The notes below the pieces were generated by a model. The model was not told the origin of the DNA and did not search any database. It saw only the letters and a program-made list of their open reading frames with translations. The position numbers and the translations under genes are program-made. Of a stretch of 64,000 bases of DNA, positions 40,227-55,395 are shown piece by piece (position 1 is the first letter of the stretch; each line of letters starts with the position of its first letter). The DNA comes from a virus. The stretch is from positions 1 to 64,000 of the IMG/VR virus record IMGVR_UViG_3300042013_000045; one strand, written 5' to 3'.

Positions 40227-42602
40227 ATGAGTACTGTAATTCCAATCTACCCGTTCGACCCGGATGGTGATGCGGTCACGAACTTGGTGCACGAGCAACA
40301 GCCGCTGGAGTCCAATGGAGTCTTTGACAACTTCTACTTGATTCCACGTGCCGCACCGTTCTACGCAGGAAGCGTGCAGTTGGTTCTGTATCCAGGCGCC
40401 ATCCCGCTGATTGAAGGTAAGCACTACAACTTCGGTCACCACTTCAAGGATGCTTCGCATACCATTGGGCAGGCGATTTACGGCTCTATCACGTTCTATG
40501 ACCGTGACATGAAGGGCATCGTCGACATGACCTACCAGACCCTTGGTGGTGCATGGACTCTCGACGAGGCTACTATTCTCGAGATTCTCGAGAACGAAGT
40601 CCGTAACCCGCGCATCACGTCGTGGGAAACCATCGTTGAGTTGCCGTTCCAATTCCCGGTTGTCAACCACAAGTTCGACATTGAAGACTTCGTCGGCATG
40701 TCGGAAGTGACTACTGAACTGGCCGGTATCAAACAAGCCCTGGAAGACAAGGGCGGTGGCGCGATCGACGAGCACATTCAGAACAAGGCGAACCCGCACG
40801 AAGTGACCAAGACGCAAGTCGGTCTCGGTTTGGTGGACAACTTCCCGACAGCCTCTGTCGCTGAAGCCCAAGCGGCAACGCTCAACACCCGCTTTATGAC
40901 GCCTCTGCGTACCCGTCAAGCAATCGAGGCTGTCGCCTTGTCTGCCCTGACTGCGCACACCGGTGATCTGAACAACCCTCACCAAACCACCAAAGCCCAC
41001 GTCGGCCTCGGTCTGGTGCAGAACTACCAGCTGGCCTCTCAGGCTGAAGCTGAAGCTGCATCGAGCAACGCCCGTTACATGACTCCACTGCGAGTGCGTG
41101 AAGCGGTAGACGCTCTGGTAGGGACAGCGTTCACGGCTCACGTCGGTAACCTGAACAACCCGCACCAAGTGAACAAAGGCCACGTTGGTCTGGGCTCTGT
41201 CCAGAACTACGGTGTTGCGGCTCCAGCGGATGCGACCACCGGTACGTCCAACGTACTGTACATGACGCCTCTGCAAACCCGTAACGCGATTGCTGCGTTT
41301 GCCGGTAACAAGATTGACACTCACGCTGCTGACTTCAACAACCCACACGCGACTTCCAAGACGCACGTAGGTTTGGGGTTGGTACAGAACTTCGGCATCG
41401 CTACTGAAGCAGAAGCCCGTGATGCGACGTTGGCCACCAAGTACATGACGCCGCTGGGTGTCCGTCAGGCGATCAACGAACTGGTGGGTGATGCAGCCAT
41501 CGGTGAGCACGTTACCAACTTCAACAACCCTCACCAGGTCACGGCTGCTCAAGTCGGGGCTCCGTCGATTGCTGAGTTCAACAACGCTCTCGATCTCAAG
41601 CTGGACTCGGGTGATGCTGCGGCTAACGCCTTGGCTGTGTACGGCATGAACCAACCTGCTTTGCAGGCGTGGATCTATTCTCTGCCGTCGGGTAATGCTG
41701 ACAAGCTGGAGAACCGTTCGTTTGCTCAGGTCATGTCGGAAGTGCTGGCTGGTAAAGCGGCTGACTCCTTCCTGCTGAACGGCAAGACGTACGCTGACAT
41801 CTTGGAAGACATCGGTGATGCCACCGCGTCGAGCTCGATCCAGTACTCCATCCCTGATCTGCCTCTGGTAGTCGATGGGGCTAACGGTGAGATTGCTCCT
41901 CCTCCAAGCTGGTTGATGTTCGGTACGTTCAAGATCCCAGTCGGTTCTACCATCTGCGATCTGTCCCTGCACCTGACTGGGGGCCGTAACGATGAAGCAT
42001 TGATCGACGAGTTGCAGTCCAGCTGCTTCTTGAACGTCTCGGCGACCACCGAGTTCCCTGATGGCGGTGTGTTGACCATCGGTGTGAAGCACGCTCAGGT
42101 TCGTCACTTGAACAAAGTCGACAGTCCGATCACCCTCGCTTACCGTCCGGTGGGCAATGGTGCTAACGCTGCGGTCGAGCTGTGGATTCGTTCTGCCTCT
42201 ACCCGCACTCAGGTCACTGTCACTGAGTTGTCCTTGAACCGCTTCAACGTAGCAACGATGTCGTCGCCTGAGCTGTTGAGCGACTTGATCACCGTGCGTC
42301 CGGCGGGTGTGCTTGACTGTGAGGTCATCACTGACGGTAGCGCTGAGTTTGCTGCTGATAAAGCTGCACTCGCTGCGTTCATTGCTCGTCGTGATAACCC
42401 GCACGTGGTTACCAAAACCCAAGTCGGTTTGGGGAGTGTGCCTAACTACGCAGAGGCCACACAGGCTGAAGCCTTGGCTGGTACTGTCACCAACAAACTG
42501 ATGACGCCGAAGCTGACTAAGGATTCCATCGACGCCAGTAACGACGCGATCCTCACGGCGGTGACTGATACGCTGAACGAACTGATTCTGGACTTCAGCT
42601 AA
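40227..42602 (+). CDS. tail fibre-associated protein with NPH repeats (phiKZ gp146-like)
   Basis: Six NPHx(V/T)...(Q/H)VG repeats, most followed by LG and ...MTP. Confidence 0.75.
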   Translation: MSTVIPIYPFDPDGDAVTNLVHEQQPLESNGVFDNFYLIPRAAPFYAGSVQLVLYPGAIPLIEGKHYNFGHHFKDASHTIGQAIYGSITFYDRDMKGIVDMTYQTLGGAWTLDEATILEILENEVRNPRITSWETIVELPFQFPVVNHKFDIEDFVGMSEVTTELAGIKQALEDKGGGAIDEHIQNKANPHEVTKTQVGLGLVDNFPTASVAEAQAATLNTRFMTPLRTRQAIEAVALSALTAHTGDLNNPHQTTKAHVGLGLVQNYQLASQAEAEAASSNARYMTPLRVREAVDALVGTAFTAHVGNLNNPHQVNKGHVGLGSVQNYGVAAPADATTGTSNVLYMTPLQTRNAIAAFAGNKIDTHAADFNNPHATSKTHVGLGLVQNFGIATEAEARDATLATKYMTPLGVRQAINELVGDAAIGEHVTNFNNPHQVTAAQVGAPSIAEFNNALDLKLDSGDAAANALAVYGMNQPALQAWIYSLPSGNADKLENRSFAQVMSEVLAGKAADSFLLNGKTYADILEDIGDATASSSIQYSIPDLPLVVDGANGEIAPPPSWLMFGTFKIPVGSTICDLSLHLTGGRNDEALIDELQSSCFLNVSATTEFPDGGVLTIGVKHAQVRHLNKVDSPITLAYRPVGNGANAAVELWIRSASTRTQVTVTELSLNRFNVATMSSPELLSDLITVRPAGVLDCEVITDGSAEFAADKAALAAFIARRDNPHVVTKTQVGLGSVPNYAEATQAEALAGTVTNKLMTPKLTKDSIDASNDAILTAVTDTLNELILDFS

Positions 42603-42610
42603 TAGTGCCA

Positions 42611-42649
42611 GGCTCACTGCATGTAACAGTGCAGTGAGTCTTTGTTTTT
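42611..42649 (+). terminator. intrinsic terminator
   Basis: GGCTCACTGCA...TGCAGTGAGTC followed by TTTGTTTTT. Confidence 0.65.
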
Positions 42650-42678: not shown

Positions 42679-44127
42679 ATGAGTACCCGACCTTTAATTG
42701 CTAAGTACCCGTTGGATAAGACGGGTACCTCGCCGACGAACAAAGTCATCGGCGAGGTCCGTGAACTCAACGGTTCGCGCGATCGTGCTTTCGTTCCATT
42801 CGGTGGGCCGTTCTACACCGAAAGCTTTAAGATCATCAACAACGACACTGGCCTTCCGCTGGTTCCGGTTGATGACTACATCCTGTGCCAACCGTTCCAA
42901 CAAGCGGCGCTGCGTACCGGTAAAGATGTCCAGTGCGTGGTCTGGATCAAACTGCCTGCACCGATCACCGTTCGCTACGAGTATCAAGTAGTCGGTGGTG
43001 AGTACAGCTGGAACATCGAAGCCTTGGTGCAGATGATCAACGAGATCGATCTCGATGGCCGTCCTGTACAATGGGGTTCGATCATTGGTAAGCCTACTGC
43101 TTATCCGCCGGCTCCTCACATCCACGACATCGGCGACAGCTACGGCTGGGAATACGTGGTCTTCCAACTGGAAGGCATCCGTAATGCGATCCTCGTAGGT
43201 GACGAAGCGTCTCACGATGAACTGCGTCAACAGATGCAAGCGATTCGTGACGAATTGGAGTTGCTGATTGCAGCGGTGGACGACAAGGTCGATCTTCACA
43301 TTGCGGACTATGCTAACCCACACCGGGTGACCAAGCTGCAAGTGGGGTTGGGTCAGGTCCAGGACTTCCCGATTGCGTCTGCCTCGGAAGCGTTGGCTGG
43401 TACAGCGACTAACCGTTACATGACGCCAGCCCTGACCACCACGCTGATCAACCGTCTGATCGACGAGCAACTCGGCGCTCACATCGCTGACAAGAACAAC
43501 CCGCACAACACCACCAAAGCACAGGTGGGTCTGGGTTCGGTCTTGAACTACGGTGTGGCTACCACTGGCGAAGCACAAGCCGGTGCGGTCAACGACAAGT
43601 ACATGACTCCTGCGCTGACCAAGGCTGCGATCATGTTCGTTGTGGGCGATGCGTTCAACACTCATGTGGCGAACACCAACAATCCTCACGGTACCACTGC
43701 TACTCAAGTGGGCTTGGGTCTGGTACAGAACTACGGCGTAGCAACAACCGCTGAAGCTCTGGCAGGGACTGCGACCAACAAGTACATGACGCCTCAGTTG
43801 ACGAACGCGGCTATCAAGGCAACCGCCTCGGATGCTCTGATCGCCCACATCGCGGACAAGGGTAACCCACACGGTACTACGGCAGCTCAGGTTGGTCTCG
43901 GTAACCTCCCGAACGCCATCACCCGGAGCCGCTTCAGTAACTCTGACGCTCAACTGCTGACCGCTGGCAGCATGTTCGATCACGTGAACTCGGGTGACCA
44001 CGATGCTCGTTACAACCCGAAAAACAACGTGAGCGTGGATGGTAGTATCCATATCTCCGGTGGTCGTGGTTACGTTGCGATCAGCGGCGGGTGGCGTCAA
44101 TTCTGGCCGGCTCAGTGGGTCGGTTAA
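42679..44127 (+). CDS. tail fibre protein with NPH repeats (phiKZ gp145-like)
   Basis: Paralogous N-terminus and four NPH...QVGLG repeats. Short C-terminus ending GGWRQFWPAQWVG. Confidence 0.75.
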   Translation: MSTRPLIAKYPLDKTGTSPTNKVIGEVRELNGSRDRAFVPFGGPFYTESFKIINNDTGLPLVPVDDYILCQPFQQAALRTGKDVQCVVWIKLPAPITVRYEYQVVGGEYSWNIEALVQMINEIDLDGRPVQWGSIIGKPTAYPPAPHIHDIGDSYGWEYVVFQLEGIRNAILVGDEASHDELRQQMQAIRDELELLIAAVDDKVDLHIADYANPHRVTKLQVGLGQVQDFPIASASEALAGTATNRYMTPALTTTLINRLIDEQLGAHIADKNNPHNTTKAQVGLGSVLNYGVATTGEAQAGAVNDKYMTPALTKAAIMFVVGDAFNTHVANTNNPHGTTATQVGLGLVQNYGVATTAEALAGTATNKYMTPQLTNAAIKATASDALIAHIADKGNPHGTTAAQVGLGNLPNAITRSRFSNSDAQLLTAGSMFDHVNSGDHDARYNPKNNVSVDGSIHISGGRGYVAISGGWRQFWPAQWVG

Positions 44128-44171: not shown

Positions 44172-44681
44172 ATGTTACGCAAGTTGACCGATTTCCAGTT
44201 TATAGGTATCACCGAAGAGCGGTTGGCGGTTGACGCGCTGTTGGACAGTCTCTACCCGTACGATCAGGGTTTGATCAAGATCGTACGGGACGGGGGCATG
44301 CACGACGCATTCAGTATCATGGATGTGCTGGAACATGAAGACAAGCCGTTGAAGATCGAAGGGATTGAACGGTTGAACCGCATTCTGTATTCAGAGTGCC
44401 AACGACTGGGCGGCAACTTCGGTCACTACGGGCCTGTCACCTGTCATCTATTCAGGTCCCCTAAGGACTCCATCAGTTTCCCCATGCATGAGGATCTCGA
44501 CGATGTCGTGGTTCACATGGTCAAAGGGAAGAAGATCTTTGAATCTCCCTCAGGCGACCTCGAGTTACTTGAGGGGGAATCCATTTTTATCCCACGTGGC
44601 ACTAAGCACCGGGCGATCAACGTCGAAGCGTCAGTGATGTTGAGTTTTGGTATTGAGCGCTTCATCGTCGAGAAACTCTGA
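44172..44681 (+). CDS. JmjC/cupin-type Fe(II)/2OG oxygenase
   Basis: FPMHED...KGKK...FIPRGTKH gives an HxD...H triad, as in the YcfD/ROX class. Confidence 0.7.
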   Translation: MLRKLTDFQFIGITEERLAVDALLDSLYPYDQGLIKIVRDGGMHDAFSIMDVLEHEDKPLKIEGIERLNRILYSECQRLGGNFGHYGPVTCHLFRSPKDSISFPMHEDLDDVVVHMVKGKKIFESPSGDLELLEGESIFIPRGTKHRAINVEASVMLSFGIERFIVEKL

Positions 44682-45719
44682 ATGCAATCGAAAACGATCT
44701 ACGTCAAAACCACAGGTACATGCAACCTCAACTGCTCCCACTGCTTTACCAACGGGAAGTCTGGCGACAAGACCCAGTTCTGCCCCGATAGCGTGGGAGA
44801 CTGGGTTGCTGACTTTATGTCACGTTACCCGGAAGGTACGCACTACCACATGGAATTCCATGGTGGCGAGCCGTTCTTGGTTCCGGTTGCTAAGCTGAAG
44901 CAGTTTGCAGACAAGTTCCACGACAATGAAAACGTTTCCATGTGCGCCAACAGTAACCTGACGTTTAAAATTACAGATGAGCACATTAATTTCATTAAAA
45001 CATATTTTAACAGTTATATAGGCACAAGTTGGGATCATTGGATCAGATGGTCCAATCAGAAACAACTCGACCTGTGGAAGAGCAACCTCAAGTTGCTGGG
45101 TAGTCACGGGATTGGGATTGGTCTGAAGGTCTCGGTTAGCCGTGAACTGATTAAGATGTCAGCTGACTGGTTCATTGATCAGCTGGAAAGCTTCGGTGTA
45201 GAGGAAGCGTCCCTGGAGCGGTTGACCTTGGATGGCAGTGCTAACGAGAACCCAGACATCTTCCCCGATAACGAGGAACAGGATAACTGGTATCTGGCAG
45301 TGTATCAGCGCTACCACGAACGCCAGCCTACTGTCCGTATTCGCACCATGGACATCATCAAGGCAAAGCTCAAGCACAACATCGTCAAAGTCGACACCAG
45401 TTGCCGCAACTGCGAGCAGAACTTGGTGACGATCAACTCCAGCGGTACGTTGGGTGGCTGTCCCAACGTGGCTACACAGAAACACCACGCAAAACTCTCC
45501 GATGGCGTTACTGCTTTCCTTGAGTCAGACAGCCGCACGGATGACATCGTCAAGGAACTCTCCTTTGGCGAGACGTGCATGACCTGTGACGTGTTCGATC
45601 TGTGTGGTGGTGACTGTCACCGGTTGCCGTGGCAAGGTTCGCGCTGTGGGGGTTTGAAGAATACCTTGCGCTTCCTGTCCGGTCGTGTGCAGACCACCAA
45701 TCTAATTTTCAAGGGGTAG
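44682..45719 (+). CDS. radical SAM/SPASM protein 1
   Basis: CNLNCSHC, FHGGEP and C-terminal CMTCDVFDLCGGDC. Confidence 0.9.
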   Translation: MQSKTIYVKTTGTCNLNCSHCFTNGKSGDKTQFCPDSVGDWVADFMSRYPEGTHYHMEFHGGEPFLVPVAKLKQFADKFHDNENVSMCANSNLTFKITDEHINFIKTYFNSYIGTSWDHWIRWSNQKQLDLWKSNLKLLGSHGIGIGLKVSVSRELIKMSADWFIDQLESFGVEEASLERLTLDGSANENPDIFPDNEEQDNWYLAVYQRYHERQPTVRIRTMDIIKAKLKHNIVKVDTSCRNCEQNLVTINSSGTLGGCPNVATQKHHAKLSDGVTAFLESDSRTDDIVKELSFGETCMTCDVFDLCGGDCHRLPWQGSRCGGLKNTLRFLSGRVQTTNLIFKG

Positions 45720-45722
45720 AAC

Positions 45723-46259
45723 ATGGCTACTGATATTCTTCGGCAACATGTGGCGAACGTGGCGAACGCCTACGTCCGTAACAATGCCAACTCGGGCATC
45801 TCTTGGGGGACGAACAACTACCCAGGTGGTTCCCTAGGGTGGTTTGCTGGCGACACTAACGGTATCGCACAGGCGTTCGATGCTAACTGGATCGCTGGGG
45901 GTGATGCTTCGGCATCCAACGTCGCGGCGCACCTGCGTAACTTCGCGAACCTCTTCGGCGGTATCCGTCTTACACGCATCGTGATCTATTACCTGGACTA
46001 TCGTTACGGCACCACGGTGCAGTACGACGGTACAGCAATTGCCAACACGATCTACGGTGTGGGCGATTACGCTTCTGGTGCTGCGCTGCCTGGTTTGGCT
46101 GGCGGTGCTGACATGGACTTGAACAACCTGAACGCCTGTGGCAATAGCCTGTGGAACAGCTACTACGCTAACGCCCGGAACACAGTCCTTACTCTTACCA
46201 ACACTATCTGCCACACCAGCTGCCATGACAACTGTCACTGTGCACGCGGGCGTCGCTGA
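45723..46259 (+). CDS. Gly/Asn-rich protein with C-terminal CHxx repeats, candidate modification substrate
   Basis: Ends in CHTSCHDNCHCARGRR and sits among the modifying-enzyme genes. Confidence 0.7.
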   Translation: MATDILRQHVANVANAYVRNNANSGISWGTNNYPGGSLGWFAGDTNGIAQAFDANWIAGGDASASNVAAHLRNFANLFGGIRLTRIVIYYLDYRYGTTVQYDGTAIANTIYGVGDYASGAALPGLAGGADMDLNNLNACGNSLWNSYYANARNTVLTLTNTICHTSCHDNCHCARGRR

Positions 46260-46271
46260 GGAGCCATTGTC

Positions 46272-47039
46272 GTGACAGACCTCGCCCCAAGCAATCCCAA
46301 TGAAGTGCTGGTAACCATCCCAATCCCTCCGGCCATCCTGCGTCGTAAGTTCACAGAACCGGACTTGCTGTTCGTCATTGATTACGACAACAGCAAGTTC
46401 AAAGGTAAGATGATGATCACTTACCTGTCCAACCTGAACATCAATTGCAAGTTGCAGCTGAATGACTCGGTGAATGCGTTGGAGCTGCTGTCGCAGTACT
46501 TGCGGATCACTACACTGGTCACCATTAGCGACATGGAACACCTGGCCATGCAGATGCTGTTGGCCTATTGCGGTAAACCTCACATGTTGGACTTCGACCC
46601 TGCGGAGTTCATTGCAGCGAACGATGACATCCTGACTGTGTGGAAACGTCGCTTGTTCCAACTGCCGTTGTTTGCCATGCACGTCCTGAAGAAGTTCGAG
46701 GATTACCTCGAGCAGTTCCCAGAAGACGATGATGACGGGATGTACGGTATCAACTACGTGCACTTGATCAAGCATGAAGACTTCGCCATCCTGATGCACG
46801 GTTACACCGATGACCTGCTGACCAAGAACACCACGCTCTTCAACGAGTACCTGTTCGCCGGCAAGAACTTGTTCCACTACTTCGCAGTTCAAAGCAATCC
46901 GCTCTTCATGGGCGTGTTGTCGTTGCAGGACGAAGCATCCTTCAACCTGATGAAGCCTGCGCTGGCAGAGGCTGCTAAGCAGTTGGAGCTGGTAGTGCCG
47001 ACGATCCAATTGAGGATTGCCAATGTACCATCTATTTGA
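46272..47039 (+). CDS. hypothetical protein of the radical SAM cluster
   Basis: GTG start with a GAGGAG RBS, 255 aa. Confidence 0.7.
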   Translation: MTDLAPSNPNEVLVTIPIPPAILRRKFTEPDLLFVIDYDNSKFKGKMMITYLSNLNINCKLQLNDSVNALELLSQYLRITTLVTISDMEHLAMQMLLAYCGKPHMLDFDPAEFIAANDDILTVWKRRLFQLPLFAMHVLKKFEDYLEQFPEDDDDGMYGINYVHLIKHEDFAILMHGYTDDLLTKNTTLFNEYLFAGKNLFHYFAVQSNPLFMGVLSLQDEASFNLMKPALAEAAKQLELVVPTIQLRIANVPSI

Positions 47040-48075
47040 TTCGGTCTACGTCGATACGCACTCGCGCATTGATCGTACACAGGACGTTATCACCATCGGC
47101 AATCAACTGGGTTACGAATACTTCCCAGATGAACGTGCGGTGGTCGGTAAGCAACTGGCTTTCGCTGAGAGCCTGGACGACGTGACCCCTGAAGCCTTCG
47201 TAGAAATGTTCACGTTGGCCAAAGCGTCGAAGAAGGCCACGGTCTTCTGTTGCGGTGGAACGTACCTGAGGCTGTACACGCTGTTGGTGAAAGCTCTGCT
47301 GCCTGCGGTGGATCTGGAAACCTTCAAGTGGATCATGCTCTGCAAGAAGGCCACGTTCAACACCACCTTGACCAACATCCGCAAACCTGTGGTTGATGTG
47401 ATCGGTTCGGTGACGATCACTGGCAAAGTCATTGAAGAGCTGTACGCCTTCGAAGACCCACTGCTGCCTGCAATGCAGGAAGTGATCCTTCAGGACAAGA
47501 CCACCCTGTCGCTCGAATGGCGCATCTTGCGCTTGAAGACTGACCAACGGGTCGGCATGCTGCCAAAGGTGCTCAAACGCATCCTGCACCGCATTGCATT
47601 GGCTAACACGCATGACGCCTTGGATGTCTGGGGTCGTGTACTTACCGAACCAGAGAACTGGGAATTCGGTGGCTGTGACTTCGACAGTCTGTTGAACGCT
47701 CCTACGGTGTTCGAAGGGTCGATGGCGTTGCAGTTCTCCAACAACCCAATGTTCCTTCAACCGAACCTGTTCGATCAAGAACCGTCGGATGACTGGATCA
47801 AAGGTTTGTTGTCTGAACTGATCCCAATGCTGGCTCACTGTGACGAAGGCCCAACGGCCGGGCGCACCAAGTTGATCCTCAAGCTGTTGCAAGAGCAGGT
47901 CAACCTGTACAACCCAGAAGTTTGTCTCGAACGCGTGATGACCATGTTCCACGGTCCAAAGCGTCTGGCACTTCCAAACCGAGATTCCGGCAAGTACGAC
48001 GAGAACTTGATCCGGTACATCCTACGAACTGACGTGGTTATTTTGAAGGCCTGCGTCGAAGGAGCTGAATGGTGA
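47023..48075 (+). CDS. hypothetical protein of the radical SAM cluster
   Basis: ATG 47023 with a GAGGA RBS. Overlaps both neighbours. Confidence 0.7.
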   Translation: MYHLFDSVYVDTHSRIDRTQDVITIGNQLGYEYFPDERAVVGKQLAFAESLDDVTPEAFVEMFTLAKASKKATVFCCGGTYLRLYTLLVKALLPAVDLETFKWIMLCKKATFNTTLTNIRKPVVDVIGSVTITGKVIEELYAFEDPLLPAMQEVILQDKTTLSLEWRILRLKTDQRVGMLPKVLKRILHRIALANTHDALDVWGRVLTEPENWEFGGCDFDSLLNAPTVFEGSMALQFSNNPMFLQPNLFDQEPSDDWIKGLLSELIPMLAHCDEGPTAGRTKLILKLLQEQVNLYNPEVCLERVMTMFHGPKRLALPNRDSGKYDENLIRYILRTDVVILKACVEGAEW

Positions 48076-49070
48076 GTAATCTTATCCCACTCGTGGACAT
48101 CTTGCAGGATAAGAAGGGCAAGTACAAGGAAGCTCACTTGATCCTTTTTGAGCGCTGCAACATGCGCTGCTCGTTTTGCCACCAGGACCACGACTCGGAA
48201 GTCGGGATGAGTGGGGAAGATGTACTTGCTAAAGTGGACACGTTCATCATGAACTCCGATCCTAATGACGCCTATGTGGTGAACATTACGGGTGGTGAGT
48301 TGTTCATGGACGACGTCCCTGATGAACTGTTCGAATACTACTTCTTGGCCGGTAAGGCGATCCTGCAACGCTTCGAGGACGTCAAGCTGGTCTTTGGTAC
48401 GAACCTCGTTTATCAGAACACGGCCCGCGTTCGTCGTTTGATGCAGCGACTGCATCCATTCGGTCACGCCTGTCTGGCAACCTCGTACGATCCTGCTGGG
48501 CGGTTCAACGGGGAGCAGCGTAAGTTGTTCCTTGAGAACCTGATGGAGTTCGAGGCGATGATTGAGACTGTCAACGTGGTCATCACACGACAGAACATCG
48601 ACATCTTCTTGAAAGGCCAAGAGGGGCCTGAGTTCGACGTCATGGTCGCAGGCTTCGATGTCTACTTCGACCATTACATCCCGAGTACGCGTTACGAAGA
48701 GCATCAGCCTACAGAACACGCGATCAGCGAACTGTACCTGAGGCTCAATGAACGTTACCCCAACTCCTATCCGATCAAAGCATGGAAAGAGAACCAATTC
48801 AACGACACCACTTGCCGGTCTACCAAGATCATCAACAGCAATGGCATCGTGACCACGTGTTGGTCTGAAGCGGGGAAAGACTCTGTGCTGGATGAAGGAC
48901 AGGGCTTGGCGTTGAAACAAGCGGCCGAAGATCGGTTCCTTGAGAAGTACAACTGTCTGGCGTGTGAGTATTACCAGCGGTGCGGTTTGCGTTGCTTCTT
49001 GCATCACAGCTTTGTTGAAGACGGCTCAGACGAGTGTCAGATCAAAGTTATGTTCGACAAGGTATTGTGA
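48069..49070 (+). CDS. radical SAM/SPASM-like protein 2
   Basis: CNMRCSFC, TGGE and C-terminal CLACEYYQRCGLRC. Confidence 0.88.
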   Translation: MVSNLIPLVDILQDKKGKYKEAHLILFERCNMRCSFCHQDHDSEVGMSGEDVLAKVDTFIMNSDPNDAYVVNITGGELFMDDVPDELFEYYFLAGKAILQRFEDVKLVFGTNLVYQNTARVRRLMQRLHPFGHACLATSYDPAGRFNGEQRKLFLENLMEFEAMIETVNVVITRQNIDIFLKGQEGPEFDVMVAGFDVYFDHYIPSTRYEEHQPTEHAISELYLRLNERYPNSYPIKAWKENQFNDTTCRSTKIINSNGIVTTCWSEAGKDSVLDEGQGLALKQAAEDRFLEKYNCLACEYYQRCGLRCFLHHSFVEDGSDECQIKVMFDKVL

Positions 49071-49077
49071 AGTGTCT

Positions 49078-49107
49078 AGGACTAGGGGATATCCCCTAGT
49101 CCTCTTT
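49078..49107 (+). terminator. hairpin inside the cluster
   Basis: Perfect palindrome AGGACTAGGGGATATCCCCTAGTCCT followed by CTTT. Confidence 0.55.
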
Positions 49108-49338: not shown

Positions 49339-50433
49339 GTGAACCTGATTATCAAACCGACCGTAGCGTGTAACTTTAAGTGCACGTTCTGTTCCAGCAC
49401 TCATCTCTCTGAAGAACCCAAAGACATCGTTGAGTTGGAGGACATCGAAGCCTTCATCAAACGTTATCCTCACACCAGCACCATCATCGTCAACGGAGGC
49501 GATCCGCTGATGATGCCTCCGTCGTACTACTACTCGATCATGGAGATCTTGGACAAGTACGAGTGTCCTGCCATTCTGTCGTTCACCAGTAACCTCTGGG
49601 CGTTCTACAAGAAGCCTGAGATGTGGGCACCTCTGTTCAAGCTTGACCGAGTAGGGGTGACCACCTCGTTCCAATACGGCGACAAACGCCTGAAGGGTGA
49701 CGGGACTGTGTTCACGGAAGAAGAGTTCATTGCTGTCAGTGATCTGTTCTTGGAGCACGTGGGTTATCGTCCGGACTTCATTGCCGTGATCGACACCGAC
49801 AACGCTCACACCGTTCTCGACACTGTACGGCTTGCTCAGCGACTGGACGTCGAAGCCAAGGTCAACTACGTCTCAGCATCCGGGCCAGAGGTGACCAAGA
49901 AAGGCATCACGATGGGCAGCATCAATCACATGTATGCTCAAGCGGATATCTACGAGCAGTACTTGTCGATCTACGATGCCGGTCTCATGAAGTGGGAATA
50001 CAACACCAAGCAGATGGTCAAGCGCCTGAACCTAGGTACCACGACCTGTCCCTTGGCGCGTCACTGTGATGAAGGCATTCGTGCACTGCAACCGGGGAAG
50101 AACTATTACTCCTGTGGCAGCTTTGGAGATGACAACGAATACCCAATCGACTTCGGCAAGGAAATGGCGGGTGAGTTCTTCACTCCACTGCGCAATGAGG
50201 AAGCGCTGCATTCCATGAAGGAGTCGTGCAATGTCTGTCCTATGTTCTCAATCTGCAATGGCTGTCGTAAGACCATCGCTGATACCAAACGCCTAGGGCT
50301 GGTTGAGCATCACTGCAAGAAGATGAAGTCCCTTGCTCCACGTATCATCGACGCCAACGGCATGACCGGCATTCTCGAGCCGACGCCGTACGAAGATGAA
50401 TCCATCCAACTGATTCCACTCATCGCAATGTAA
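49339..50433 (+). CDS. radical SAM/SPASM protein 3
   Basis: KPTVACNFKCTFC, NGGDP and C-terminal CNVCPMFSICNGC. Confidence 0.9.
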   Translation: MNLIIKPTVACNFKCTFCSSTHLSEEPKDIVELEDIEAFIKRYPHTSTIIVNGGDPLMMPPSYYYSIMEILDKYECPAILSFTSNLWAFYKKPEMWAPLFKLDRVGVTTSFQYGDKRLKGDGTVFTEEEFIAVSDLFLEHVGYRPDFIAVIDTDNAHTVLDTVRLAQRLDVEAKVNYVSASGPEVTKKGITMGSINHMYAQADIYEQYLSIYDAGLMKWEYNTKQMVKRLNLGTTTCPLARHCDEGIRALQPGKNYYSCGSFGDDNEYPIDFGKEMAGEFFTPLRNEEALHSMKESCNVCPMFSICNGCRKTIADTKRLGLVEHHCKKMKSLAPRIIDANGMTGILEPTPYEDESIQLIPLIAM

Positions 50434-50443
50434 AGAGAGCACC

Positions 50444-51370
50444 ATGAAGCCAGCAATCAATGTCTCCCTCAACGTTTCGTATTACTGTAACTTCCGGTGC
50501 TCTTTCTGTTACTTGACTGAAGAACAACTTGGTGACCGTACCAAGGTGAACCTCGAGCTGCTAGCTTCACGGATCGATGAGATCTTGGCATACTACACCA
50601 TCGAGCACGTAGACCTGTATGGCGGAGAAGTCCTGCTGTTACCCAAGGCGTATCTGCTCGGCATCAAAGAGATCCTCCATGCACGCGGTATCACCGACAT
50701 CGTGTTGATCACGAACCTCTCGCTCGTCAATGAGATCGCTAACGATCCAGACTTTGAGATCTCGGTCTCTTACGACTTCGGGGCGAGAGAGAAGGCAGAT
50801 GAAGTCCTCGGTAATATGTTCATGCTGGAGAATCGGTTCACTGTCTTGACGCTGGCCTCTCGTGCGTTCTTAGACACGGTATCGGTCGACGAGTACGTTG
50901 ACACCATGAACCTGTTAAACCGTCTCAAAACGGCTGAGATCAAGCCGTACAGCAGTAACCAAGCCAACGATCACGCAGTACAGTTTGATGAATTCGAAAA
51001 CTTCGTCTGGGCAGTGATAAACCACCCTAACCGCGAGTTCTATTTCGAGAACCGCAGTCAGGTGAAAGAAGCTGTAGAGACTGGCAACCGTAATGCCTTC
51101 AGTGACAACCACATCTACATCACTCCGACGGGCGACTTCGCCGTCCTTGAGTTCGATGGTAAGGATCGTGAGTTCTTCCTGAAGGTAGACGGGATGGCGG
51201 GCTACCGGGCGTGGTGTGATGCAGAGAAGAAGCGGGTCAATGCGAACCCGTACTGCCAAGCGTGCCCTTACAATGGCAAGTGTCTCTCTGAGCACTTAAG
51301 AGAAGTCGTGACCTTGGAACATTCCTGTAATGGGTTCAAAGGTCTACTAGACAGGTGGGCAGCACAATGA
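50444..51370 (+). CDS. radical SAM protein 4
   Basis: CNFRCSFC, YGGE and C-terminal CQACPYNGKC. Confidence 0.88.
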   Translation: MKPAINVSLNVSYYCNFRCSFCYLTEEQLGDRTKVNLELLASRIDEILAYYTIEHVDLYGGEVLLLPKAYLLGIKEILHARGITDIVLITNLSLVNEIANDPDFEISVSYDFGAREKADEVLGNMFMLENRFTVLTLASRAFLDTVSVDEYVDTMNLLNRLKTAEIKPYSSNQANDHAVQFDEFENFVWAVINHPNREFYFENRSQVKEAVETGNRNAFSDNHIYITPTGDFAVLEFDGKDREFFLKVDGMAGYRAWCDAEKKRVNANPYCQACPYNGKCLSEHLREVVTLEHSCNGFKGLLDRWAAQ

Positions 51371-52404
51371 TGGTACAACACCGGCAACGGTTGGAGATCA
51401 CCCTCGATATCTTCCGGGGGTGTAAGCACGCTTGTTCGGGGTGCATGATCGACAAGGCTATCGGCGGGGATGTGACTGACATTCCTGAACTGTTGGACTT
51501 GATCAAGGAGATGACGGCTGCGGGTTACGTGGCATTCGACTTAGGTGTGGGTCCGACGGACTACATGTCTTCAGACAACACCGCGGAAGTCATGACCAAC
51601 CCGGTCTTCAACGAGATGGCTCAACTGTTTCACCAGATAACGTTTAACGCAGCCTTTCTTGAGAAGGACTTGGAACAGTACGCTAGCATGTGTGCTGACA
51701 TCGATGAGGCAGCACCGGGTAAGGCCATTCGTTTCCTTATTCCTGCTGCCCCGACGTTCTTCAAGTCTGACAAGTTCGGCAACATGATCAAGATGAAGCT
51801 TGAGTTTATCAAGAACGCTATGAAGTCAGCGTACTTGAACGAAGCTGGCTTTGTGGTGAACTGCACTACGGAGACGGTTGGTGAGGATTTCGATGTCCGC
51901 ATGATGGATGGCTTTGAAGTAGAGTTCCCGGTGGACAAGGATGACATCCTAAACATCCCTTACGGGCGCTCTCCGAACAAAGACCTGATGCTGGCACAGA
52001 ACATCAAGCGGATCAGTCACCGCATCAGTGAGTTCTATGCCAAGTTGAACGGTATCGATGAACGTCGACGCAACCCCGACCTCCATTACGACACGGGGAC
52101 GATGGTCAACCTGCTGTACACCGGCGGTAAGTTGTATTGGGTGCCGTTCCTTAAGGATGACTGTCCGTTCATTGACGACGACTTTACGATCCCACGCCCC
52201 TGGACTATGGATAACCTGCTGGCAGTCCGTAGCAAGGCTCTGGAGAGTTCTCTGGAGTACTTGGAGGACACGCCGTGCATGAACTGCGTCTATGTCAGTA
52301 GTTGTGCTGAGAAAGGCATCACCAGCATCATGAAGAAGATGGCGATCAAAGATTGCCTAGTGGGGTTACAACATGCTTTCCCAACAGATCTCGATGTCGT
52401 TTAA
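51367..52404 (+). CDS. divergent radical SAM-like protein 5
   Basis: CKHACSGC, GPTD in place of GGE, and C-terminal CMNCVYVSSC. Confidence 0.7.
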   Translation: MMVQHRQRLEITLDIFRGCKHACSGCMIDKAIGGDVTDIPELLDLIKEMTAAGYVAFDLGVGPTDYMSSDNTAEVMTNPVFNEMAQLFHQITFNAAFLEKDLEQYASMCADIDEAAPGKAIRFLIPAAPTFFKSDKFGNMIKMKLEFIKNAMKSAYLNEAGFVVNCTTETVGEDFDVRMMDGFEVEFPVDKDDILNIPYGRSPNKDLMLAQNIKRISHRISEFYAKLNGIDERRRNPDLHYDTGTMVNLLYTGGKLYWVPFLKDDCPFIDDDFTIPRPWTMDNLLAVRSKALESSLEYLEDTPCMNCVYVSSCAEKGITSIMKKMAIKDCLVGLQHAFPTDLDVV

Positions 52405-53407
52405 CATCTCGCTCGAGGTATTGACGGGGTGTCGTTACAGTTGTGCGGGGTGTACGGTTGAGAAGAACTTTGCACCCTTGGATGTGTCCGAGAAAGACAC
52501 CGACGATCTAGTAGTTATGCTCGATGATCTGATTGCTGATGGGTATCGGTTGTTGGAGTTCCGAGTGGGGCCGACGGATATCATCTCTGCGGATAATGGG
52601 TTCCCTGCATTGAAGCATCGTTTGACGCGTGAGTTCGGCAAGCGCTACAAGGCGTTGAACTTGAACATGGCGATGCTTCACGATGAAGGCTTAGTAGAGC
52701 TGGCAGAGATCTTGGACGAAGTCATTCCTGGAAAGCTGCTCAGCGTTACTCTACCCATCACATTAAAAAATACACACAACGACAAGTACATTGGTGAATT
52801 GAAAAAAAGAGTGCTGTATTTTAAGGGACTGTTGAAGACTGTAAACTTCAACAGGATCTATCTCACTTTGAATGTGGGGGAAGAAAACCTAAAGCACTTG
52901 AGCACTGAGAGTTATGATCATGCCCATGAACTTGACTTAGGTGTCGATCTTGTAGTGGAGTTCCCGTTCGCTCATTCAAGGAAGGGGTTCGGTAACCTGC
53001 TGGTCGTGGATGAGTTCAAGGCTGATCTGGTAGAGTTCGTGGACTTCATGAAGACACGGGTTAACACAAGGGGCTTTCGTCCATTGCAACCTGCAATCTT
53101 AGAAGGTTTCGAATTCACCTATCGGGGAGGGCTTCTGTACTCTGTCCCCGTGGTCGTGGAGAGCCTTCCGATGTTCCATCCGATGTTTGTGGTGGATCGT
53201 CCGTGGACCGCCCAGAGCATCTACGCCTACAAGGAGCAACATTACTACAACAACCTCGAGACGTTCCTAGAACACCCCGAGTGTGGTGACTGCATGTTCC
53301 TAGACCATTGCGCACGTGGGGACGTCCATCGGATCATGAACTTGATCGGGACTGACAAGTGCCTGACTGATTCCAAGAATAGATGGGAATACTTCCACCC
53401 GGAGTAA
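52373..53407 (+). CDS. divergent radical SAM-like protein 6 (paralog of 5)
   Basis: CRYSCAGC, GPTD and C-terminal CGDCMFLDHC. Confidence 0.7.
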   Translation: MLSQQISMSFNISLEVLTGCRYSCAGCTVEKNFAPLDVSEKDTDDLVVMLDDLIADGYRLLEFRVGPTDIISADNGFPALKHRLTREFGKRYKALNLNMAMLHDEGLVELAEILDEVIPGKLLSVTLPITLKNTHNDKYIGELKKRVLYFKGLLKTVNFNRIYLTLNVGEENLKHLSTESYDHAHELDLGVDLVVEFPFAHSRKGFGNLLVVDEFKADLVEFVDFMKTRVNTRGFRPLQPAILEGFEFTYRGGLLYSVPVVVESLPMFHPMFVVDRPWTAQSIYAYKEQHYYNNLETFLEHPECGDCMFLDHCARGDVHRIMNLIGTDKCLTDSKNRWEYFHPE

Positions 53408-53410
53408 ACT

Positions 53411-53848
53411 ATGCTCAATCCTGATGACATCATGATCACTGACGGCGTCGAGATTCCGCACTGGTTGTTAGATGAAGCAATGTGCTTGGAGAACCGTAAG
53501 TTCATTGAGGTCGAGAACATCGTCGACTTCACATGGAACTACCTCCGTGCTTACGCTCTCAAGCACCCTCTCGTGAATAAGCCGATCCGTCCGTGTGCCA
53601 GTCACATCAACATTGGCCATCATGGGGTGACACCTCACAACCACGAACCCCATGCGTTCACCTCCGTCCTGTACTTATTGGATGCTGAGGGTGAGCTGCG
53701 GTTCTGGGATAACGTTGATCTGTCCATCACACCCAAAGAGGGACGGTTCGTTATGTTCCCTGGTCACATCACCCATTACGTCGAAGCATCCAAGCAAGCC
53801 GAACTTCGCATCTCGCTGGTAACCAACTATGAATACTACCCGACATGA
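53411..53848 (+). CDS. putative Fe(II)/2OG oxygenase (TIGR02466-like)
   Basis: PHNH...TSVLYL...MFPGHITHYV...RISL. Confidence 0.7.
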   Translation: MLNPDDIMITDGVEIPHWLLDEAMCLENRKFIEVENIVDFTWNYLRAYALKHPLVNKPIRPCASHINIGHHGVTPHNHEPHAFTSVLYLLDAEGELRFWDNVDLSITPKEGRFVMFPGHITHYVEASKQAELRISLVTNYEYYPT

Positions 53849-54275
53849 GTACAAGGATTACCAGGAGCTGTACCAACTCCTGGTGACCGACCATCCTGAT
53901 GCGTTTGCCAACATGGAGATCGTTGAAGAAGAAGAACTCGTGCACAACGCACTGAAGTACTTCGACCATGCGACCTTCCCTTTGATTTACCCGGCCAAGA
54001 GTTATGCCGTGGCGATCATCTACGCTTACAAGATCAAAGAGGTCTACGGTGTTCCTGTTCTTACTACCCTGGATGACCCGGATCTGTTCCTTGGTCAAGA
54101 CCCTTACTTCGTACCGTACTCAGCGGACAAGGCGACGTATACGGACATTATCGCTCATCTCCAGGATCGACCAAACTTCCTCAATGAAGGATGGGCACCC
54201 CAAACCGTGAAGTACTTCTACGCCGAGTGTACGGCTGAAGGGATTGAAAAGTTGCAAGAGGAGTTCTGCAAATGA
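53829..54275 (+). CDS. hypothetical protein of the radical SAM cluster
   Basis: 148 aa, overlaps both neighbours. Confidence 0.7.
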   Translation: MNTTRHEYKDYQELYQLLVTDHPDAFANMEIVEEEELVHNALKYFDHATFPLIYPAKSYAVAIIYAYKIKEVYGVPVLTTLDDPDLFLGQDPYFVPYSADKATYTDIIAHLQDRPNFLNEGWAPQTVKYFYAECTAEGIEKLQEEFCK

Positions 54276-54838
54276 ACATCATCCAGCCATGGAAGATCGA
54301 GATCGGTCATGTCAACGTCAATGGCACCCCTTGGGACATGACTGAATTCGCCACAGAAGTGTTCAACCTGAACCTGATGACCGGTGGGCAACAAGAGACC
54401 CAGGTCAGCTTGGGTTCTGGCCTCTGTCCCATCATTCTGGAGATGCGTGACACTCTCATTACGCCGCTGGTCAAAGAGTTCGCACGGAATCAGCTTGGGT
54501 ACATCCTGCGAGACGGTGAGTTCGAAGTCGAGACCAACGCCAAGTGGATTCCCAAAGGCGAAGGTCTCTATCCTCACCAGCACTCCAGTTCGATCCTGTC
54601 GGTCATTGTCTACCCACAGGACTCCAAGTCTGGGTTGAACTTCTTTGACCCTCGCACGAATGCTGGTCGTGGGTTTCCTCGTGAGATCCGTGATGAACAC
54701 TTTGCCCGTTATGCCATCTCGCCTAAAGCCGGCGATGTGTTCATCTTCCCCAGTTACCTTCAGCACAGCGTTTCGTATGTAGAAGAAGACATCCGTCTCT
54801 CGCTGTTGCATGAATACTATCCACATTCCACTCGCTGA
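54272..54838 (+). CDS. putative Fe(II)/2OG oxygenase (TIGR02466-like)
   Basis: PHQH...SVIVYP...FDPR...IFPSYLQHSV...RLSL. Confidence 0.78.
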   Translation: MNIIQPWKIEIGHVNVNGTPWDMTEFATEVFNLNLMTGGQQETQVSLGSGLCPIILEMRDTLITPLVKEFARNQLGYILRDGEFEVETNAKWIPKGEGLYPHQHSSSILSVIVYPQDSKSGLNFFDPRTNAGRGFPREIRDEHFARYAISPKAGDVFIFPSYLQHSVSYVEEDIRLSLLHEYYPHSTR

Positions 54839-54846
54839 GAGCTCTC

Positions 54847-55395
54847 ATGGAAATCATACAACCTTGGCAAGTCAAGATTGCCCGTGTCAACATCGCTGAG
54901 TTTGTAGACCTCGAAGGTCTGGCTGGCGAGATCCATCAACTGCACTGCCTGTCCCCTCGGGAGTCTGCGACGCCGTACCCAGTCACACCCGCTGAGTTCC
55001 CGCTGATCTGCGCGGCACGTGACGGTATCATCACTGACAAGGTCAGCGAATACATCGAAGAAGCCTTCGGTGTAAGTCCTCTGGGGATGGTGATCGACAC
55101 CTTTGGCAAGTGGTTCGGTAAAGGGGAAGAGCTGGGTTCTCACCTGCACGGCAACTCCAATGTGACCAGTGTGTTCTATCCGTACGAATACAGCACGGGC
55201 ATGATGCTGATGGACCCTCGCTTCAACGCACAGCGCGGTTACTCGCGTCGTGTCCGTGATACCCACTTCGGGGATTACAATGCACGGCCTAAAGCTGGCG
55301 ATCTCTGGATCGTACCGAGCTACGTGCAGCACAGCATCCCTACGGTGAAGGACGATCTGCGTATCTCCCTCATCAACGACTTCCACTTCATTTAA
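54847..55395 (+). CDS. putative Fe(II)/2OG oxygenase (paralog of the previous gene)
   Basis: SHLH...SVFYP...MDPR...VPSYVQHSI...RISL. Shares the IIQPW N-terminus. Confidence 0.78.
   Translation: MEIIQPWQVKIARVNIAEFVDLEGLAGEIHQLHCLSPRESATPYPVTPAEFPLICAARDGIITDKVSEYIEEAFGVSPLGMVIDTFGKWFGKGEELGSHLHGNSNVTSVFYPYEYSTGMMLMDPRFNAQRGYSRRVRDTHFGDYNARPKAGDLWIVPSYVQHSIPTVKDDLRISLINDFHFI

Follow-up and report, generated by a model that had tools for sequence, protein, structure and literature searches.

A conserved Cys-His tail on a jumbo phage protein as a candidate substrate of co-encoded radical SAM enzymes

To our knowledge, maturation of peptides by radical S-adenosylmethionine (radical SAM, rSAM) enzymes is found in bacterial natural products and in a few host proteins, e.g., sulfatases, and not in virus particles. 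The enzyme anSME, an rSAM/SPASM protein that lacks a domain for peptide recognition, acts on a Cys within the C-x-(P/A)-x-R motif of a whole protein. Further systems with which comparison is warranted are the SCIFF peptides, ranthipeptides, and sactipeptides (CteB/ScfB, PapB) together with the CXXX-repeat peptides; the His-Xaa-Ser system (HxsA, HxsB, HxsC, HxsD); and the triceptides (YhhB, HaaB, HtkB, FxsB, AmcB, ChlB), whose motif consists of an aromatic residue followed by X2 and X3, His motifs (HNR, HAA, HTK) included; on these three YhhB, HaaB, and HtkB act, His C2 being joined to C-beta of X3 (PMC11499958). The gene considered here, P1, lies at positions 45723-46259 (+ strand) of a 64,000-nucleotide stretch of viral DNA, called the window below (positions 1 to 64,000 of IMG/VR record IMGVR_UViG_3300042013_000045), and encodes a protein with a C-terminal tail of three Cys-His units and a basic end. 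P1 is read here, with moderate confidence, as a virion structural protein, probably fibre-associated, the exposed tail of which is a candidate substrate of co-encoded rSAM/SPASM enzymes and Fe-oxygenases. What is known in this reading is rSAM/SPASM maturation of a ribosomally made Cys/His core; what is new is the setting, a folded phage virion protein with a large enzyme set.

The window belongs to a jumbo phage related to Pseudomonas phage pPa_SNUABM_DT01 (DT01). The viral record that holds it is linear, 172.8 kb long, and estimated to be 65% complete; its close relatives come from compost and soil metagenomes.

Translation of P1 gives 178 residues with the C-terminus LTLTNTICHTSCHDNCHCARGRR, i.e., LTLTNTI-CHTS-CHDN-CHCA-RGRR. 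Cys residues are located at positions 139, 163, 167, 171, and 173, C139 being the single Cys of the body; the composition includes 26 Ala, 22 Asn, and 21 Gly plus Tyr, Trp, and Phe, and neither Lys nor Glu occurs anywhere in the 178 residues. An earlier note on this DNA had described an open reading frame (ORF) of 178 codons with this ending, with one body Cys and rich in Ala, Asn, Gly, and aromatic residues, placed directly after rSAM1, and the translation and gene order agree with it on every point: 3 nt separate the TAG stop of rSAM1 from the ATG of P1, an AAGGGG Shine-Dalgarno-like site precedes this ATG within the 3' end of rSAM1, and 12 nt lie between the stop of P1 and the start of g6 (GTG at 46272). 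A search of the 172.8-kb record with a DNA pattern for (CHxx)2CH gave a single occurrence and a reversed control gave none, and a two-unit Cys-His pattern is found in the window at the P1 site only, against 0.25 occurrences expected; the Cys-His tail of P1 is not a chance pattern. The sole library match of P1 is to phrog_35144 ("unknown function"; E 4.2e-6, residues 6-178 on profile positions 4-186 of 186), the group of Ralstonia phage RSL2 ORF068, which itself matches at E 4e-128; no family match was obtained in Pfam or NCBIfam (NCBIfam threshold E <= 0.1).

A word-indexed search yielded 50 homologues of P1. In the resulting alignment of 51 sequences, C163, H164, S166, C167, H168, C171, H172, R175, G176, R177, and R178 are invariant, including where body identity is down to 33%; across the larger tail family body identity falls to about 26%. 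A profile search of 1.84 billion representatives gave 537 clusters (50% identity) at E <= 0.001 and 210 at E <= 1e-10, and the tail family is found in phages only. Among 200 family proteins, which include the best 150 of the 537 clusters, the exact C-terminal C-H-x-x-C-H-x-x-C-H-x-x-R-x-R-R is present in 178, so that the conservation expected in the earlier note is borne out. The logo of these 178 tails is [VI]-C-H-[STA]-S-C-H-x-[SN]-C-H-x-[SAN]-R-[G>S]-R-R-COOH, with only X2 of each unit freely variable. The remaining proteins are mostly small variants (additional Gly, two or four units, truncated contig), among them the two-unit tail of P0096, with unchanged gene order on a 3-kb contig, and the four-unit tail of P0169. 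Selection acts on the protein sequence of the tail, since the invariant Cys, His, and Arg residues are encoded by mixed synonymous codons across 51 distinct DNA tails, and Ser at position -13 is kept at 93% by both AGY and TCN codons.

The tail is carried by bodies of 129, about 180, 257, 296, 364, and 453 residues; in some family proteins the core stands in two to five copies in tandem, and in some loci two tail genes are adjacent. What stays constant as a module is thus the tail and not the body. Two members of 227 aa (L020:9995-10678 and protein P0054) have four or five copies of the core (VVCHxSCHxSCHSN...) in an otherwise standard cluster, and their multi-core tails resemble multi-core precursors of peptides that are made on ribosomes and modified after translation (RiPPs). 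Tandem short paralogues, each with a tail, span loci L052-L056; the adjacent pairs of 129-140 aa at L052:935-1746, L053:9662-10473, and L055:6118-6935 are followed by runs of divergent rSAM genes and not by g6. Such multi-core and multi-precursor variants, together with the C-terminal core and the many tailoring enzymes, would also suit an alternative that we hold to be improbable: P1 as a RiPP or cofactor precursor with a large folded leader (like NHLP/Nif11, with the logic of PqqA and MftA), the modified tail being cleaved off to give a small free product (metallophore, redox cofactor, or toxin). The conserved cluster genes argue otherwise, no protease or exporter being found among them in Pfam, PHROG, and NCBIfam scans and in the related loci; so do the body, which has nearly invariant motifs of its own in the 51-sequence alignment, the first tail Cys, which in the predicted structure directly terminates a body beta-strand, and a homologue recovered from virions with 35% coverage.

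That structure, obtained with AlphaFold2 from the 51-sequence alignment, has an alpha/beta body (predicted local distance difference test [pLDDT] 87, predicted template modelling score 0.81), a strand at 156-163 whose end is the first tail Cys, and, predicted with less confidence, a helix at 165-174 (pLDDT 56-73); the confident body upholds the view of the earlier note that the tail is fused to a folded domain and not to a short leader. Among solved structures nothing was found for the model at E <= 0.001 (Foldseek, PDB), the best Z of a wide VIA-align comparison was 3.5, and in the ESM Atlas the best template modelling score by shape was 0.35, with nothing in the feature search. Matches are to viral predicted structures only: the DT01 orthologue, an uncultured phage protein, gp170 of Agrobacterium phage Atu_ph07, and three proteins of 504-660 aa, all from one uncultured myovirus. 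The model thus points to a phage-specific fold for the body. Prediction of a complex of rSAM1 and P1 with three 4Fe-4S clusters and SAM gave ipSAE values of 0.02 and 0.07 (mark 0.32), which speaks neither for nor against binding.

The earlier note had proposed to look for proteins ending in CHxxCHxxCH...R(G/S)RR and to list their neighbours, and had held that homologues occurring widely without rSAM genes would speak against a modified tail; rSAM genes are present in 57 of 57 IMG/VR loci that have a canonical tail ORF. Of the 53 loci with sufficient flanking sequence, 47 have an rSAM1 orthologue directly upstream of the tail ORF, and in 47 of 54 the gene directly downstream is g6; where this usual flank is missing, another rSAM gene abuts the tail gene. 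After rSAM1, g6 is the gene most tightly linked to P1. The recurrent core comprises cupin, rSAM1, P1, g6, rSAM2, rSAM3, rSAM4, and g14 (Table 1). In DT01, gene order is that of the window gene for gene, from the fibres through the oxygenases, and the core cluster is also present in Ralstonia phage RSL2 (ORF066-077), in Atu_ph07 (gp172-164), and in a metagenomic phage with an additional B12-binding rSAM. The cultured carriers (DT01, RSL2, Atu_ph07) were located via rSAM1; tblastn with two diverged family members revealed no further cultured phage.

The CxxxCxxC motif is located at residues 14, 30, 11, and 15 of rSAM1-4, each of which has a C-terminal Cys cluster, so that the N-terminal motif and the C-terminal auxiliary-cluster Cys of the rSAM/SPASM superfamily are found in all four; in rSAM1 the motif reads CNLNCSHC and eight more Cys lie in the C-terminal third. 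The full SPASM-type Cys pattern is present in rSAM1-3, and these three have no N-terminal recognition domain, as the proteins start directly with the rSAM core. The gathering score of Pfam Radical_SAM is reached by rSAM3 and rSAM4 only, and the SPASM model scores 24.5 bits on rSAM1 against a cut-off of 27. In NCBIfam, rSAM1 matches best to the cyclophane synthases YhhB, AmcB, and FxsB (49.9, 48, and 42.8 bits, below the membership cut-offs of 445, 425, and 370), then to PapB, anSME, DarE, and DynA, and rSAM3 to DynA and anSME. Scores of rSAM1 and rSAM3 are 37-50 bits, against cut-offs of 340-650. Matches to solved structures are all weak (CteB and ChlB for rSAM1, anSME for rSAM3). On these best sub-threshold matches the enzymes are placed in the peptide- or protein-modifying SPASM branch and in no curated family. 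The cupin just passes the Pfam JmjC_2 cut-off (23.1 bits against 22); the JmjC_2 family includes protein Arg and His hydroxylases.

With up to six rSAM/SPASM proteins of several clusters each, loading with Fe-S is needed, and Cys-rich C-terminal tails can ligate clusters; P1 could accordingly be an accessory Fe-S or metal carrier, or an electron donor, for the rSAM enzymes and not their substrate. This is judged highly improbable: P1 has no similarity to known scaffold families in Pfam or NCBIfam, such a helper is not expected in virions that lack the enzymes, and neither the Gly-rich structural-type fusion seen in the family nor the multi-core tails fit. Binding of c-type haem (C-x3-C-H) was also considered and dropped, there being no haem lyase and assembly being cytoplasmic.

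Among the described systems, the resemblance of the tail to rSAM core peptides, claimed in the earlier note, holds for the triceptides. H-[STA]-S, H-x-[SN], and H-x-[SAN] of the 178 tails conform to the triceptide precursor motif, repeated and with X2 variable and X3 conserved; the best NCBIfam matches of rSAM1 and one of its two solved matches (ChlB) are triceptide enzymes; and FxsB substrates, to go by the family name, also bear their motif at the extreme C-terminus. In contrast to the short peptide substrates of the triceptide systems, each served by one maturase, P1 is a folded 178-aa protein of virion type with an invariant Cys before each His, and four to six rSAM enzymes plus oxygenases are encoded by the phage. 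The models of the SCIFF and His-Xaa-Ser systems are not matched at their cut-offs. With the SCIFF-type and CXXX-repeat systems, P1 and its cluster share the C-terminal core, a Cys at every fourth residue, and an adjacent rSAM/SPASM gene; CteB is the best solved match of rSAM1 (E 0.0032, rSAM core only), and rSAM1, rSAM2, and rSAM4 have PapB near the top of their NCBIfam matches. However, ScfB (TIGR03974) scores 20.9 bits against 425 and the CXXX maturase 16.7 against 350, the invariant His of P1 is without counterpart, no precursor model is matched, and a SCIFF peptide has about 45 aa and six Cys, as compared with 178 aa and three conserved tail Cys in P1. The His-Xaa-Ser system likewise has H-x-S repeats and more than one rSAM, with a period of 3, whereas the P1 tail has a period of 4 with one Cys per unit; there is no match to HxsA or HxsD, and HxsB and HxsC score 30.7 against 370 and 19.5 against 267.9 bits. 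As for anSME, the third unit of P1, C-H-x-(S/A/N)-R, has the same spacing from Cys to Arg, for rSAM1 and rSAM3 the alignment to the anSME model is full-length, and rSAM3 has its best match among solved structures in anSME; but position 3 of P1 is G, S, C, or N instead of the Pro/Ala of the target motif, a sulfatase domain is lacking, and scores are 42 (rSAM1) and 36.7 (rSAM3) bits against a cut-off of 349.45 (TIGR03942).

Presence of the family in particles is indicated by Atu_ph07. Its gp170 (296 aa, C-terminus FCHSSCHASCHNSRSRR, calculated mass 31,894 Da) is encoded directly after the rSAM1 orthologue gp171. In the list of virion proteins of Attai et al. 2018 (Table S5), Gp 170 is given as hypothetical, 31.89 kDa, with 8 unique peptides and 35.16% coverage, in bands 1-9 with peak abundance in band 1 (PMC6102473). 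As only 170, 176, and 177 are listed there from Gp 143 to Gp 181 (PMC6102473), the cluster enzymes gp164-169, 171, and 172 are absent from the virion list. As this homologue was detected in particles, the folded domain probably belongs to the structure of the particle instead of serving as a leader. Proteins of 127-139 kDa run in band 1, which is at the top of the gel (PMC6102473); a 32-kDa protein peaking in this band suggests an assembly stable to sodium dodecyl sulphate (SDS) and heat, or covalent links. Two more hints at a structural role are the fibre-like gene upstream of the cluster in most loci and the family member P0144, in which a Pfam Gly_rich_2 domain stands at the N-terminus and which weakly matches a "tail fiber assembly" PHROG. 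P1 resembles the metal tips of fibres and spikes and the T2-type gp38 adhesins in being a small separate gene beside fibres, with a homologue detected in particles, with potential metal ligands, and with this one Gly-rich fusion in its family; it differs in having no sequence or fold similarity to solved fibre or adhesin structures, and known fibre-tip systems have no dedicated modifying enzymes.

Several observations weigh against P1 as a fibre-associated substrate. The rSAM family scores (about 50 bits against 340-445) assign no reaction type. The Atu_ph07 preparation was purified with polyethylene glycol and 128 proteins are listed (PMC6102473), some of which are probably contaminants; the loading buffer as described is without reductant, and for this reason disulfides via the tail could give the band-1 signal; RSL2 ORF068 is hypothetical in RefSeq, its neighbour ORF065 being a "virion structural protein"; and some loci have no fibre gene ahead of the cluster. 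The conserved C, H, and S/N of the tail, at i, i+1, i+3, and i+4, moreover fit one face of an alpha-helix, so that, in the predicted structure, the logo would also be explained by a helix that binds metal without any modification.

This last point leads to the main rival, which is regarded as unlikely: the tail would be an unmodified Zn-, Fe-, or Cu-binding motif (Cys3His3), perhaps on the axis of an oligomer, with the rSAM enzymes and oxygenases acting elsewhere, e.g., on fibre proteins or on a small molecule. Cys and His at i and i+4 of a predicted helix have classical chelating geometry, the conserved positions share one helical face, presence in virions fits equally well, and His-metal sites are known in T4 gp37 and gp12 and in spike tips. 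Left unexplained, however, would be the constant flanking of the tail ORF by rSAM1 and g6, the multi-core tails and tandem short paralogues, and the retention of Ser -13 through both codon families; nor did a pattern search of the 172.8-kb record find any other candidate substrate motif. The tail as substrate is favoured because the tail is conserved, the rSAM neighbourhood is invariable, and 3 nt separate rSAM1 from P1; because the SPASM-type enzymes best match peptide and protein maturases; and because the family varies as precursors do, in multi-core tails, tandem paralogues, and body lengths.

In the favoured reading, the last body strand (TLTLTNTI) would lead into an exposed 16-residue tail, (C-H-x-S/N/A)x3-R-G-R-R-COOH, on which rSAM1 would act first, rSAM2-4 being the other universally conserved enzymes; the cupin/JmjC-like and 2-oxoglutarate (2OG) oxygenases would probably act on it as well. 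The chemistry may be radical crosslinking at the tail Cys and His. Candidate products are a His-to-C-beta cyclophane in each H-x-S/N/A triplet, Cys thioethers as in the SCIFF and PapB systems, or, on the final C-H-x-S/A-R unit, formylglycine formed from Cys in the manner of anSME; His, Asn, or Arg may be hydroxylated in addition. The result would be a rigid, protease-resistant tip on the particle, possibly metal-binding or covalently crosslinking. A bolder version, to which we give somewhat less than an even chance, is that jumbo phages of several lineages equip a virion protein, directly at its C-terminus, with a RiPP-like polycyclic Cys/His "warhead" by means of a dedicated set of four to six rSAM enzymes plus Fe oxygenases; it would span the phiKZ-like DT01 and RSL2 groups, the T4-like Atu_ph07, and many uncultured marine and soil phages.

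Table 1 Features of the P1 gene cluster in the window, with strand and remarks
Feature	Position	Strand	Remarks
Tail-fibre-like protein 1	40227..42602	+	phrog_2163 / phrog_13857
Terminator-like hairpin after fibre gene 1	42610..42641	+	13 pairs
Tail-fibre-like protein 2	42679..44127	+	phrog_2163 / phrog_13857; no terminator-like site before the cluster
Cupin / JmjC_2-like Fe oxygenase	44172..44681	+	Ahead of rSAM1 in nearly all related loci
rSAM1, radical SAM/SPASM enzyme	44682..45719	+	Radical_SAM, SPASM model, and phrog_1802 matches
P1, 178-aa protein	45723..46259	+	Folded alpha/beta body (predicted) and C-terminal tail
P1 tail coding region	46209..46256	+	C163-H-T-S-C-H-D-N-C-H-C-A-R-G-R-R178, invariant core of the family
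g6, unknown protein	46272..47039	+	phrog_20767; confident model
g7, unknown 352-aa protein	47017..48075	+	Frequent cluster member
rSAM2	48069..49070	+	CNMRCSFC and C-terminal Cys cluster
Terminator-like hairpin after rSAM2	49078..49103	+	11 pairs
rSAM3, SPASM-type	49339..50433	+	NCBIfam best DynA, anSME; solved best anSME
rSAM4	50444..51370	+	Fewer auxiliary Cys
rSAM5, divergent CxxxCxGC protein	51355..52404	+	Absent from some related loci
rSAM6, divergent CxxxCxGC protein	52373..53407	+	Absent from some related loci
oxy1, 2OG-Fe(II) oxygenase	53411..53848	+	
g14, unknown protein	53829..54275	+	Conserved cluster member
oxy2 and oxy3, paralogous oxygenase-like genes	54272..55395	+	DT01 homologues annotated 2OG-Fe(II) oxygenase

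As terminator-like hairpins are located at 42610 and 49078 and none lies between fibre 2 and rSAM2, P1 probably shares a transcript with a fibre gene and the first enzymes; to judge from the DNA, the hairpins would bound a unit of fibre 2, cupin, rSAM1, P1, g6, g7, and rSAM2. These two strong hairpins suggest transcription of the island's first half together with a late structural gene.

The protein g6 has a confident AlphaFold2 model (pLDDT 91.7), for which nothing was found among solved folds at E <= 0.001 (Foldseek; best Z 3.9) or by ESM Atlas features. That g6 is a degenerate rSAM was considered and set aside, as its N-terminal beta/alpha units reach only Z 2.9 against anSME and ChlB, which is too weak; on its model, a degenerate rSAM-like chaperone is possible but unsupported. 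The tandem paralogues rSAM5 and rSAM6 (51355-53407; 349 and 344 aa) have CxxxCxGC in place of the aromatic-containing CxxxCxxC, and their auxiliary Cys are confined to a short C-terminal CxxCx5C...C cluster; neither matches Pfam, and in NCBIfam faint rows near E 0.07 were obtained for rSAM5 only. The two are absent from many related loci, and similar genes occur in others (L049, L052) in up to six copies. In locus L064, the cluster contains a P1 homologue fused to Pfam Gly_rich_2 and a 521-aa B12-binding radical SAM protein of class B type (L064:16420-17985), and has no fibre gene upstream; class B B12-binding radical SAM proteins are usually methyltransferases.

The C-terminal domains of the fibres are of two types: a Trp-rich one ending ...WRQxWPxxW in the DT01 and RSL2 groups and in the window (43770-44127), and one with YADLAEKY...GRVPVKV...KGD (phrog_22593, phrog_19602) in the most distant of the loci compared (L001-L059). 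The idea that P1 docks in every phage to a single, conserved fibre C-terminus was rejected, given these two unrelated domains and the fibre-less loci. In Ralstonia phages RP12 and RP31 a different rSAM set is found in the same place, after two YomR-like fibre genes, and comprises a 537-aa rSAM, an "arylsulfatase regulator" Fe-S oxidoreductase, and MoaA-like and MgoB-like proteins; unannotated ORFs of 125 and 295 aa ahead of this set could be an alternative substrate (PMC5468394, Table S2).

Phage genome papers list such rSAM genes without interpretation. In the paper on Aeromonas phage 332-Vera, eight rSAM genes in a structural cluster are called "highly unusual" (PMC12390700), and radical SAM is unmentioned in a survey of 224 jumbo phage genomes (PMC7824862). 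In open-access papers and preprints, no Cys-His tail protein and no rSAM maturation of a phage structural protein was found described. Hundreds of diverged phage lineages have the system, which combines an invariant tail of 16 residues with four or more conserved rSAM enzymes; three of its carriers, phages of Pseudomonas, Ralstonia/Burkholderia, and Agrobacterium, are in culture and open to genetic work. Modification of the tail would explain the "highly unusual" rSAM gene sets of phages and would add a new substrate-enzyme set, with Cys-His repeats on a folded protein and no recognition domain, together with a new class of post-translational chemistry in phage adsorption structures. In the bolder version, P1 would be the first radical-SAM-matured structural protein of any virus, and the role of its modified tip would be to recognise the host, to capture metal, or to anchor covalently within the particle.

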